From: Escherichia phage EcS1
Direction: 5' to 3' (one strand)
Length of the DNA: 64,000 bases
Sequence record: NC_055721.1
Below, one piece after another: positions 55,977 through 58,519 of the stretch. Positions within the stretch are counted from its first letter, which is position 1; each line of letters opens with the position of its first letter. Position numbers and translations under genes: made by a program. Below the pieces are notes generated by a model that made no database searches, was not told the origin of the DNA, and saw only the letters and a program-made list of their open reading frames with translations.

Positions 55977-56207
55977 TTATTCACCTGATTCAACAATTGT
56001 ATCAAAAAGTTCTTCAATCATTTCTGGGTACATGCCAACACAGTACTCACGGTTTAGATAAAGATTGATAGTACGACGGTCACCTTCAATAGTGATTTCC
56101 ATACTGTAACCATTAGTAACACATTCAACTTCTTTAAGATTGTACTTATCAAGACAAGTCTCTTTGAAATAAGCATAATCGTAGATATCAATAGTTACTT
56201 TAGCCAT
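55977..56207 (-). CDS. Hypothetical small protein
   Basis: 76 aa ORF with own promoter and leader hairpin. Confidence 0.5.
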   Translation of the reverse strand: MAKVTIDIYDYAYFKETCLDKYNLKEVECVTNGYSMEITIEGDRRTINLYLNREYCVGMYPEMIEELFDTIVESGE

Positions 56208-56237
56208 TTTGTTTTCCTCACTTGTTTGTAGGAAAAC

Positions 56238-56266
56238 ATCTTACCACATCTAAATGAGGTTGTAAA
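56238..56266 (-). promoter_or_regulatory. Sigma70-like early promoter (TTTACA-17-TAAGAT) immediately after gene 32 terminator
   Basis: Hexamers read on minus strand; homologous to 46371-46399 unit. Confidence 0.5.
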
Positions 56267-56267
56267 C

Positions 56268-56297
56268 AGATACAAAAATGGGAGACCGAAGTCTCCC
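56268..56297 (-). terminator. Gene 32 terminator (GGGAGAC-TTCG-GTCTCCC + ATTTTTGT)
   Basis: Hairpin 7 nt after gene 32 stop, T-run follows. Confidence 0.8.
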
Positions 56298-56304
56298 ATC
56301 ATTA

Positions 56305-57210
56305 TTACATACCTGCTAACAGAGCATCTAAGTCGTCTTCATCAGCACCACTTGGTGTGGTATCACGAGATTGGACATTAGTACGAGCTGTATCAGTAAA
56401 GTCTTTCATATCTTGGTCGAAGGCATCAAGTGAATCACCGATTGCATCAGCCTGAGCAGAAGCTTTAGCGGCAGCACCACCAAGTGCAGCGATACCAAAT
56501 ACTTGTTCAAATTTCTTCTGGTTTACATCCAGAGTTTTGAACTTATCTTTAGAAGTCAGTTCGCTCAAATCAGACATATTGTCATTGAGGAATGTCTGGA
56601 ACGTTTCGTCGTTGATATTAGGGATTTCAGATTGACCTAAGAATTTAGAGTCATCATAGTTCTTGAAATCACCGACTTTCTTAGTTTTCAGTACGAAGTT
56701 CGCACCATCGAAAGGACATGTCACATCGACTGGAGTTTCACCGATAGAGGTATCAACTTCAACCATTGCTGTGATTTTGTCGTATACTTTCTGACCAAAA
56801 CGGAACTTGAATACTTTACCTTCTGTTTCTGGGTTAGCTTTATCTTGAACAACCAAGATGTTAGCCCAGTATGAAGTCTTACGCTTCAGGAGTTGGTATT
56901 CAGGCTTATTCGTATTGTACGAATCATTTTTAGACAGATATTGGCAAACTGGACAGTTATCAAAGTCACCATGAGTAGAAGTACAGTTTTCGATGTACCA
57001 TTTACCATTTTTCTTGAAACCGTGATTCACCAGCTTAGCAAACGGAAGACCTTCATCACCTTTACCTGGAAGGAAACGAATAACAGCCATGCCATTACCG
57101 TTGTCGTCTTTCAATTTCCATTCATTCTTATCGTCAGAAGAGAAACCTTGACCACCTTTCAGAGAAGCCAGTTGTGCTTGAAGAGCTGCAGGATCTTTAC
57201 GCTTGAACAT
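56305..57210 (-). CDS. 32: Single-stranded DNA-binding protein gp32
   Basis: 301 aa (same as T4); [67 protein letters not shown] match recalled T4 gp32. Confidence 0.97.
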
Positions 57211-57295
57211 ATTTTATTACCTTATTTAAATTAACAGTTTATTTTATTAGTTGATGTGACATAATGCCTCACATCTGGCATACTGATATTTATAA
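57211..57295 (-). promoter_or_regulatory. Gene 32 leader with hairpin (ATGTGA-N9-TCACAT) and minus-strand TATAAATA; candidate translational operator
   Basis: Hairpin and A/U-rich leader read upstream of gene 32 ATG; T4 gp32 autoregulates on its leader (from memory). Confidence 0.4.
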
Positions 57296-57949
57296 TCAGA
57301 TTTTGCAACTCTTGATAGTTTGTATAAAGAGCGTTTTAGCTTCCAAGGGATTAATATTCAAAATCTTCTTGTAAGCTTTCAATTTAATCGAATAATTCGA
57401 CCAAACTAAATCAGTAGACAGTTCGTCATGTTTATCTATTATATCCAAAAAAGAATCAAGCAAAATAAACGTTTCAAAACTGATAACGTTTGATTGGAGA
57501 AGCTTGAAGATATAACTCGAGCTGACGTTCTTATTATACACAAATAATTCGTTAAGCGAATTGGTTTCAACTTTCTGAGCGAAGTAATACATGTTCTTAA
57601 TATCATCTTCGAACACGGTTTTAACTCGTTTCAGTTTACCAATATATTCACGATAAAATACTAACGCGTCAGCATCACTGATGTCGCCAATCCATGCATC
57701 TTGGTTAGCAACCAAGTTACTCATGAATATTAATGTTAGTTCTTTAAGAGTGTATTTGTCAGCTAGTTTTTCAAAGAAATACTTGTCACGACGTTTGTTA
57801 TAGGCTGCGTCAGAAATTCGCATGGTCCAATTATACTTTATAACGTCGTAACGACCATTAAAGTGCTGTTTGAGCATCAAATACAACATATAAACTGATT
57901 TACCATTTATATGTCGTGTATTATTAGGAGGCATGCGAATTTGAATCAT
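57296..57949 (-). CDS. 59: Helicase loader gp59
   Basis: 217 aa (same as T4); YDVIKYNW.MR.SDAAY.KRRDKYFF, VANQDAWIGDISDADALVFYREYIG, SSYIFKLLQSN.ISFETFILLDSFL.IIDKHDE. Confidence 0.95.
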   Translation of the reverse strand: MIQIRMPPNNTRHINGKSVYMLYLMLKQHFNGRYDVIKYNWTMRISDAAYNKRRDKYFFEKLADKYTLKELTLIFMSNLVANQDAWIGDISDADALVFYREYIGKLKRVKTVFEDDIKNMYYFAQKVETNSLNELFVYNKNVSSSYIFKLLQSNVISFETFILLDSFLDIIDKHDELSTDLVWSNYSIKLKAYKKILNINPLEAKTLFIQTIKSCKI

Positions 57950-58254
57950 AGCAAGAAATCCAGGGTATTTGTTCGTTGAGTACGAGCCATAGATGGACGA
58001 AGAAGATTATCGTCAATGGCTTCGCTCATAATTTTATCAATTATACCAGTCGGAATGAATCGAGCAAATTGACCTTCTGGAACAGAGTTTTCTTCAAGCC
58101 AGGCAGTCGTTACTTCAAGATAAGAAGAACCGGTTTTAGCAACCAGTTTTTCAATATCGAAGCCATTTTGTTGTTTATCTAAAGAAGTATTGATATCATC
58201 TTTAGTAATAGGGGCGCCAGCCCCATCATCATTTAGCAGGGAAAATTGAGTCAT
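57946..58254 (-). CDS. 33: Late transcription accessory protein gp33 (start at MTQFSL)
   Basis: C-terminal ENSVPEGQFARFIPTGIIDKIMSEAIDDNLLRPS...TNTLDFLL matches recalled T4 gp33. Confidence 0.85.
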   Translation of the reverse strand: MTQFSLLNDDGAGAPITKDDINTSLDKQQNGFDIEKLVAKTGSSYLEVTTAWLEENSVPEGQFARFIPTGIIDKIMSEAIDDNLLRPSMARTQRTNTLDFLL

Positions 58255-58519
58255 ACAGTTCAACAACCTCTTCTTTCTCAGATTCAAAACGATCACGTGT
58301 ACCTTTGTGATGCAGAGAGAACACTTGGCCAAACATTTTACCGTCTACACCAAGTTCTTTCTTAGCTCGAGTTTTGATTTCTTTAATTTGGTCGCCATAA
58401 GCTTCCATTTTCAATTTAATATCAGAAGCTTCTTTAACCATTTTAGCCAAGTCAGCACCATGGACAGCTTCGTCAAATTCAACTTTAAATTCTTTCTTTT
58501 CTTTAACTTCTTTAGACAT
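58229..58519 (-). CDS. dsbA: Double-stranded DNA-binding protein DsbA
   Basis: 96 aa basic protein between 33 and rnh as in T4. Confidence 0.6.
   Translation of the reverse strand: MSKEVKEKKEFKVEFDEAVHGADLAKMVKEASDIKLKMEAYGDQIKEIKTRAKKELGVDGKMFGQVFSLHHKGTRDRFESEKEEVVELYDSIFPAK

Follow-up and report, generated by a model that had tools for sequence, protein, structure and literature searches.

A putative T4-type pseudoknot operator in the gene 32 leader of Escherichia phage EcS1

Introduction

Is the short spacer between genes 59 and 32 of Escherichia phage EcS1 a regulatory leader, and does it carry an operator like the one through which gene product 32 (gp32) of phage T4 represses its own translation? 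The gene 32 operator class has been known since the 1980s. We examined a 64,000-nucleotide (nt) stretch of the EcS1 genome (NC_055721.1; the whole stretch is hereafter called the window), in which gene 32, for the single-stranded DNA-binding protein, follows gene 59 on the minus strand. An initial annotation of this spacer had described an TATAAATA octamer, a hairpin and an A/T-rich tract, and had likened their layout to the autoregulatory leader of T4 gene 32. We find that the hairpin is one half of a complete potential pseudoknot, and that the leader element is very probably homologous to the T4 operator, as judged by sequence comparison.

The T4 operator combines a 5' pseudoknot of about 28 nt with a tract of more than 40 nt that contains UUAAA and UAAA repeats, and repression needs both (PMC535899; PMC3014915). 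In the T4 model, the pseudoknot nucleates gp32, which then spreads cooperatively over the tract, including the ribosome-binding site, and initiation is blocked when free gp32 exceeds the available single-stranded DNA (PMC535899; PMC3014915). The N-terminal basic domain of gp32 is required for cooperative binding (PMC10484735). According to a 2010 review of T4, autocontrol by gp32 in the diverse relatives of this phage needed more study (PMC3014915).

Results

The gene 32 leader can form a complete H-type pseudoknot

The octamer, the hairpin and the A/T-rich tract are all present on the minus strand, where the spacer RNA reads U-UAUAAAUA-UCAGU-AUGCC-A-GAUGUGA-GGCAU-UAUG-UCACAUC-AACUAAUAAAAUAAACUGUUAAUUUAAAUAAGGUAAUAAAAU-AUG. 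The hairpin as originally described pairs ATGTGA (57274-57269) with TCACAT (57259-57254) around the loop ggcattatg (57268-57260); one more G-C pair extends it to 7 base pairs (bp). A search for pseudoknots showed what that description had missed, namely that the GGCAU of the loop can pair with the AUGCC just upstream. The result is a complete H-type pseudoknot at -71 to -43 relative to the gene 32 AUG. Its 5-bp stem 1 joins AUGCC (57277-57281), which starts five nt past TATAAATA, to GGCAU (57264-57268). A single A at 57276 forms loop 1. The 7-bp stem 2 joins GAUGUGA (57269-57275), the 5' arm of the hairpin, to UCACAUC (57253-57259), and loop 2 is UAUG (57260-57263). The 3' strand of stem 1 abuts stem 2 directly, and with this junction of zero nucleotides the two stems can, in the modelled structure, stack coaxially.

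The initial annotation had also proposed that the operator interpretation would fail if the hairpin had no pseudoknot-compatible partner downstream. This was mis-specified. Seen from stem 2 the partner lies upstream. If stem 1 is taken as the hairpin instead, a downstream partner exists in UCACAUC, so this proposal does not count against the interpretation.

Nested minimum free energy (MFE) prediction yields the stem 2 hairpin alone. Folded as separate hairpins, stems 1 and 2 are both stable, with energies of -5.5 and -7.2 kcal/mol that resemble those of T4 (-3.1 and -7.3) and T2 (-6.1 and -7.0). Because ViennaRNA cannot predict pseudoknots, we wrote a custom geometry scan that required a stem 1 of at least 5 bp, a loop 1 of 1 nt, a stem 2 of at least 7 bp, a junction of 0 nt, a loop 2 of 3-8 nt and at most one G-U pair. 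Across both strands of the window (128 kilobases (kb) in all) only three sites fit, and the gene 32 leader was the only one without a G-U pair. When the 133-nt leader was shuffled with its dinucleotide composition preserved, 37 of 5000 shuffles (0.7%) contained such a fold; this rose to 2.2% when a stem 1 of at least 4 bp was accepted.

We also noted a 16-codon open reading frame (MPDVRHYVTSTNKINC, then stop) at 57281-57231 on the minus strand, which opens with the AUG of stem 1 and ends at the UAA of AACUGUUAA in the A/U-rich tract. If late transcripts begin at 57281, this AUG would be leaderless. The closest relatives of this leader, those of the genus Winklervirus, keep a 14-codon version. 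The frame is probably incidental, since most other pseudoknot lineages have no AUG at this position.

Both stems are maintained by compensatory changes in T4-like phages

The evidence that carries the pseudoknot is comparative. We gathered gene 32 leaders of 41 distinct sequence types, in which the window phage is represented by an IMG/VR genome of 175,437 bp (L001), together with one further pseudoknot type (L235/L250/L278) recovered by a pattern scan. The same pseudoknot geometry was found in 11 of the 41 leader types, always directly 5' of (ACC)AACU. From these we built an alignment, A4, of eleven distinct core sequences. Ten come from the 11 types, as two T4-type leaders have one core in common, and the eleventh is the additional type. 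The lineages covered are the window phage, Winklervirus, the T4 type, the T2 type, the Mosigvirus/RB69-like type, VR5, Klebsiella phage Marfa (two variants), Erwinia phage Cronus, Acinetobacter phage ZZ1 and a large group of Klebsiella phages. Unguided MAFFT misplaced the outer pairs of stem 1 because loop lengths vary, and A4 was therefore padded with N and given artificial flanking anchors.

In A4 the two-stem structure pairs 95.5% of cells, a percentage that is partly high by construction because the finder demanded stem 2 plus at least three pairs of stem 1; sliding the register by 1-3 columns reduced it to 27-43%. Changes on both sides of a pair were seen at 10 of the 12 base pairs, including all five of stem 1 and five of the seven in stem 2, the latter stem being paired in 100% of the eleven leaders. 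The covariation score was 0.785 compared to 0.249 in shuffles, and none of 500 shuffles reached the observed value. The single A of loop 1 (column A16) is invariant in all eleven. Once stem 2 is placed, the register of stem 1 is set by the 1-nt loop 1 and the zero-nucleotide junction; stem 1 still pairs, with varied base-pair types.

Only three of these results are independent of the finder: the covariation, the slid-register control and the outcome of an unguided MAFFT alignment, A2. In A2, which also contains RB69-like and other leaders, the window hairpin falls in register with stem 2 of T4 and of T2, which bears out the likeness to the T4 leader that was first proposed. Among the nucleotides that do not vary are those of the CCAG...AGG context and of the G-C and U-A pairs in stem 2. 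RNAalifold on A2 returned stem 2 as the sole consensus helix, four of its pairs being compensatory and none broken, and predicted no consensus structure in the A/U-rich tract.

Two pattern scans of the phage collection were of limited use. CCAGN6AGGN{3,25}ACCAACTGT gave unrelated chance matches, and none of the matches listed was followed by a gp32 start. The second pattern, CAACTGTN{18,48}ATGTTYAARCG, was largely noise, and gave the one new pseudoknot type described above.

Two further leaders deserve mention. In L045 and L046, the sequence upstream of gene 32 contains a candidate pseudoknot of looser form (CAAUGAA...GGUGUAG..UUCAUUG...CUACAUC), which the strict finder misses; its loops are longer, its junction is not zero, and these leaders contain no ACUGU. 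The ZZ1-type leader (L054) has the same geometry as the window, with a 7-bp stem 1 (GAAGCUU/AAGCUUU) and a 19-nt loop 2, and continues into the usual ACCAACUGUUA, so the element extends to T4-like phages of Acinetobacter.

The pseudoknot is followed by an A/U-rich tract that covers the ribosome-binding site

Downstream of the pseudoknot lies a tract of 42 nt (57211-57252, minus strand) that is 88% A+U and contains one UUAAA, four UAAA and two UUAA. The T4 tract is 39 nt long and 85% A+U, with four UAAA and three UUAAA. The mean probability of being unpaired was 0.68 for the window tract and 0.36 for the pseudoknot region. Within the tract, the Shine-Dalgarno sequence AAGGU (57219-57223) is placed 9 nt from its GG to the AUG, which equals the spacing in T4. 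By analogy with T4, we presume that the 42-nt tract is the site of cooperative gp32 binding, which would cover the ribosome-binding site.

A putative late promoter would start transcripts at the pseudoknot

The octamer TATAAATA (57287-57294, minus strand) is an exact match to the TATA box of T4 late promoters and is in the orientation of gene 32. It occurs 16 times in the window compared to 5.8 expected, an approximately threefold enrichment, and none of 100 shuffles reached 16 copies. The 8-bp TATA box of T4 late promoters is numbered -13 to -6, and not every TATAAATA site in T4 is a proven promoter (PMC2988020). With this numbering, the predicted transcript start (+1) is the A at 57281, which lies 6 nt past the last A of TATAAATA, at -71 from the ATG, and is the first nucleotide of stem 1. 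From its sequence and placement, TATAAATA is most likely a late promoter dependent on gp55. Winklervirus phage LC53 encodes gp55, gp33 and gp45 (PMC10132071).

In leaders of the Winklervirus, Marfa, Cronus, RB69-like and T2 types, a copy of the octamer likewise precedes the pseudoknot, by 3-24 nt. In T4 the distance is 77 nt upstream (-151 from the ATG), which places the octamer inside segG, and no copy is close to the pseudoknot in leaders of the VR5, ZZ1 and Klebsiella 'Roth' types. RNase E trims all T4 gene 32 transcripts at -71 (PMC3014915), and the window pseudoknot begins at this same position.

A small hairpin, CUGAU-UAUAAAU-AUCAG (57283-57299, minus strand; 5 bp, 7-nt loop), appears in both the MFE and the centroid structures and encloses the gene 59 stop codon and most of TATAAATA. 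Its sequence is identical across the Winklervirus relatives and so gives no information on covariation. It could matter on read-through transcripts, or be due to chance. A middle promoter of the MotA type was considered before the leader (GTTGCAAAA); the match was too weak to claim.

Elsewhere in the window, 9 of the 16 copies of TATAAATA are clustered on the plus strand between 6580 and 20398 (6.5-20.4 kb). These are presumably late promoters of a block of structural genes transcribed opposite to gene 32.

AACUGU is conserved more widely than the pseudoknot

The window tract contains one copy of AACUGU (57234-57239, minus strand), at -28. We counted this motif in the 80 nt upstream of the gene 32 ATG at loci L026-L069 and L085. 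It was present in 38 of 40 distinct leaders, making it more widespread among T4-like leaders than the pseudoknot (11/41) or UUAAA (28/40). There were 71 copies in the sense orientation and none of the complement ACAGT, which rules out ACNGT as a palindromic DNA site. In these leaders the pentamer ACUGU is always preceded by A. In the window this pentamer has a background frequency of about 0.9 per kb on each strand, and the 6.5 kb examined upstream of 26 distant gp32 homologues contained only one copy. A longer form, AACTGTWAA, was rejected as a general genome motif: three copies in the window compared to 2.6 expected is no enrichment.

Leaders that lack the pseudoknot have up to four copies of AACUGU. 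In many of these (L028, L032, L034, L036, L043 and others) gene 59 runs up to the Shine-Dalgarno sequence of gene 32, and its last ~45 nt contain three copies with spacings of 13 and 10 nt. The copies fall in three codon contexts, CAA CTG TTC, AAA ACT GTC and AAC TGT AAA; the homologous gene 59 codons of the window (ACG CTC TTT, CAA ACT ATC and AGT TGC AAA) are without the motif. This pattern suggests selection at the RNA level that overlaps the coding sequence, and AACUGU may be an unrecognised operator determinant. A literature search found no paper linking ACUGU to gp32. We consider it a speculative and rather doubtful proposal that AACUGU is the ancestral sequence-specific determinant of gp32 autoregulation in T4-like phages and the pseudoknot a lineage-restricted addition; under it, late EcS1 mRNA would start at the pseudoknot and trimming by RNase E would be unneeded.

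Genes flanking the leader

Gene 59, the helicase loader, occupies 57296-57949 on the minus strand (open reading frame list; Pfam T4_Gp59_N, E=1e-47; T4_Gp59_C, E=4e-37). Its stop codon TGA (57298-57296) forms the 5' boundary of the 85-nt intergenic leader. Gene 32 (56305-57210, minus strand; ATG at 57210) encodes a 301-residue protein matching PF08804 (E=4.6e-55) with 68% identity to T4 gp32. The N-terminal MFKRK is identical to that of T4, and the zinc-binding His and Cys residues align with those of T4. The late coactivator gp33 is encoded at 57949-58332 on the minus strand (PF16805, E=5e-25). Overall, the order rnh-dsbA-33-59-32-frd.3 is syntenic with T4.

Directly after the gene 32 stop codon, a terminator scan found an intrinsic terminator-like hairpin of 10 bp with a UUCG tetraloop and a U-run (56277-56300, minus strand). 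This strong candidate terminator is consistent with a monocistronic late gene 32 mRNA.

Discussion

We assign the T4 mechanism to this leader because every sequence-level component of the T4 model is present and the cooperativity motif of gp32 is conserved. Under this model, gp32 would first saturate single-stranded DNA. Excess protein would then nucleate at the pseudoknot and spread cooperatively in the 3' direction on the A/U-rich tract through its conserved N-terminal FKRK domain, and the ribosome-binding site would be covered, repressing translation of gp32 itself. Transcripts from the late promoter would start exactly at the first pseudoknot nucleotide, and transcripts reading through from gene 59 and further upstream would contain the operator internally. 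Autoregulation in EcS1 is a conclusion from homology, and our confidence in the function is somewhat lower than in the homology.

Several observations weigh against this assignment. The folding energy of the 111-nt leader does not stand out from that of shuffles (z = -1.09, with 26 of 200 folding equally well), so that support for the pseudoknot is comparative. An Rfam scan of positions 56000-58500 at E<=10 matched no gene 32 pseudoknot family; the matches there (STnc260, a microRNA and others) are chance only, the best having an E-value of at least 0.25, far under the gathering thresholds, and hence no curated model confirms the element. The window tract also has a single UUAAA where T4 has three, and the ACC linker seen after stem 2 in other lineages is missing. 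With only 4 nt to cross a 5-bp stem 1, loop 2 is shorter than that of T4 (5 nt) or T2 (7 nt); that 4 nt would be adequate is an argument from the Cronus-type leader, with 3 nt across 4 bp, and from general knowledge. The strict finder did not detect the pseudoknot in 30 of the 41 distinct leaders, so gene 32 can be controlled without it, and the finder's own demand for pairing inflates the paired fraction in A4.

How far do these points favour other explanations? If the leader held only a simple stem 2 hairpin, a generic 5' stabiliser or barrier to RNases that gp32 does not specifically recognise, nested folding would give just the hairpin that it does give, and T4 gene 32 mRNA is indeed unusually stable, with RNase E processing at -71 (PMC3014915). 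However, such a hairpin would not account for five stem 1 pairs that covary in a fixed register beside stem 2, for the fall in pairing when the register is slid, or for a 1-nt loop 1 and a zero-nucleotide junction kept in eleven leaders. The T2 homologue has moreover been solved as a pseudoknot (PDB 2TPK, cited in PMC3014915 and PMC5684407). We therefore regard the simple hairpin as highly improbable. It is also improbable, though a little less so, that the pseudoknot is real and serves mainly in mRNA processing or stability, with repression weak or absent owing to decay of the UUAAA repeats. The single UUAAA would fit this explanation, as would the coincidence of both the predicted late +1 and the T4 RNase E cut with the 5' edge of the pseudoknot, and the RNA footprints of RB69 and T4 gp32 are known to differ (PMC535899). 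Yet the tract matches that of T4 in length, A+U content and number of UAAA repeats, the N-terminal cooperativity motif is conserved, and the two roles are compatible in T4.

Two alternatives concern the boundaries of the leader. The hairpin lies just past the gene 59 stop codon, where an intrinsic terminator for gene 59 transcription might be expected, but it is followed by A-rich sequence and not by a U-run, and the scan that found the strong candidate after gene 32 (56300-56277) found no terminator here on the minus strand. We rejected a terminator for lack of the U-run and consider it scarcely credible. The second alternative concerns the promoter. TATAAATA could have arisen by chance in an AT-rich spacer, or could belong to the gene 59 stop context or the small CUGAU/AUCAG hairpin, with gene 32 expressed solely from upstream early or middle promoters on polycistronic RNA. 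The leaders without the octamer near the pseudoknot (VR5, ZZ1 and 'Roth' type), and the T4 copies that are not proven promoters (PMC2988020), are in keeping with this. Against it stand an exact 8-mer in the correct orientation, its enrichment in the window and its recurrence shortly before the pseudoknot in five leader types, with the T4 copy 77 nt upstream. An EcS1 leader without a late promoter is thus unlikely, although it deserves more weight than any of the other alternatives; this concerns the promoter and not the operator.

A T4-type operator is the reading that we retain. The 59-32 spacer would then be no junk but a regulatory leader, with a putative late promoter, a pseudoknot operator and a ribosome-binding site, and autoregulation of gene 32 probably follows that of T4. 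The value of this result is mainly one of annotation: the records of the Winklervirus relatives do not annotate the pseudoknot, and the LC53 genome paper does not mention a gene 32 pseudoknot (PMC10132071). More broadly, at least nine sequence types, drawn from phages of Escherichia, Klebsiella, Erwinia, Serratia and Acinetobacter, retain the T4/T2 geometry and show extensive compensatory change, and the majority of other T4-like leaders are without it. These comparative results leave the accepted mechanism unchanged. The class of element is long recognised and EcS1 adds a new phage example, which would not surprise a specialist.

Comparison with known systems

The T4 operator was reportedly characterised by McPheeters, Stormo & Gold in 1988 and by Shamoo et al. 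in 1993. The T4 leader (NC_000866) reads AUGCC-A-GCUAUGA-GGUA-AAGUG-UCAUAGC-ACCAACUGUUAAUUAAAUU...AAGGAAAUAAAAAUG and has the same order of elements as the window: stem 1, a single A, a 7-bp stem 2, the second strand of stem 1, loop 2 and the second strand of stem 2. The AUGCCAG and AGG nucleotides are identical, the flanking genes are the same except for the inserted segG of T4, and in both phages a tract of about 40 nt with UAAA/UUAAA and AACUGUUAA leads to an equally spaced start codon. Stem 2 differs from that of the window at three of seven pairs, all compensatory. Stem 1 has 4 bp in T4 (UGCC/GGUA) compared to 5 bp in the window (AUGCC/GGCAU), loop 2 is one nucleotide longer, and an ACC linker, absent from the window, follows stem 2. 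The 5' edge of the pseudoknot is at -67/-68 in T4 and -71 in the window, AACUGUUAA is 13 nt further from the pseudoknot in the window, and the late TATA box, which in the window precedes the pseudoknot by 5 nt, does so by 77 nt in T4, where it lies in segG.

The T2/T6 pseudoknot is closer in form. Its nuclear magnetic resonance structure was reportedly determined by Du, Giedroc & Hoffman in 1996 and Holland et al. in 1999 (PDB 2TPK). Like the window, it has a 5-bp stem 1, a single-A loop 1 that crosses a 7-bp stem 2, and stems that can stack coaxially, and the T2-type leader (UGACC-A-GCUAUGA-GGUCA-UACAUCG-UCAUAGC) has TATAAATA shortly upstream and no segG. It differs in the sequences of the stems (UGACC/GGUCA and GCUAUGA/UCAUAGC), in a loop 2 of 7 nt compared to 4, and in a TATA box 17 nt from the pseudoknot.

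In RB69, a diverged pseudoknot that has experimental support and an unstructured tract form the operator, and binding of the cognate gp32 was demonstrated by footprinting (Borjac-Natour, Petrov & Karam 2004; PMC535899). RB69 has other stem sequences and a longer tract than the window, and its operator has been footprinted, whereas that of the window is predicted from sequence. A Mosigvirus-type leader (L047: ATACC-A-GCTACGA-GGTAT-AAGTG-TCGTAGC) fits the window geometry. With T4 late promoters in general, the window has in common the exact 8-bp consensus, an AT-rich downstream segment, the correct orientation and a gp33 gene; unlike them, the predicted start of this putative promoter is the first base of a structured RNA element.

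The nearest leaders in the GenBank phage collection are those of Winklervirus (Serratia phages CHI14, X20 and LC53; Erwinia phages Vettismorki, Gravdalen and Virsaitis27; Kosakonia phage Kc304), with ~86% nucleotide identity over the region. They have TATAAATA, the small hairpin, stem 1, both loops and the 3' strand of stem 2 in common with the window. Their A/U-rich tracts are 3-8 nt shorter and the repeats are arranged differently. At position 2 of stem 2, all Winklervirus relatives have G·U where the window has A-U, a difference that preserves the pair and makes it tighter.

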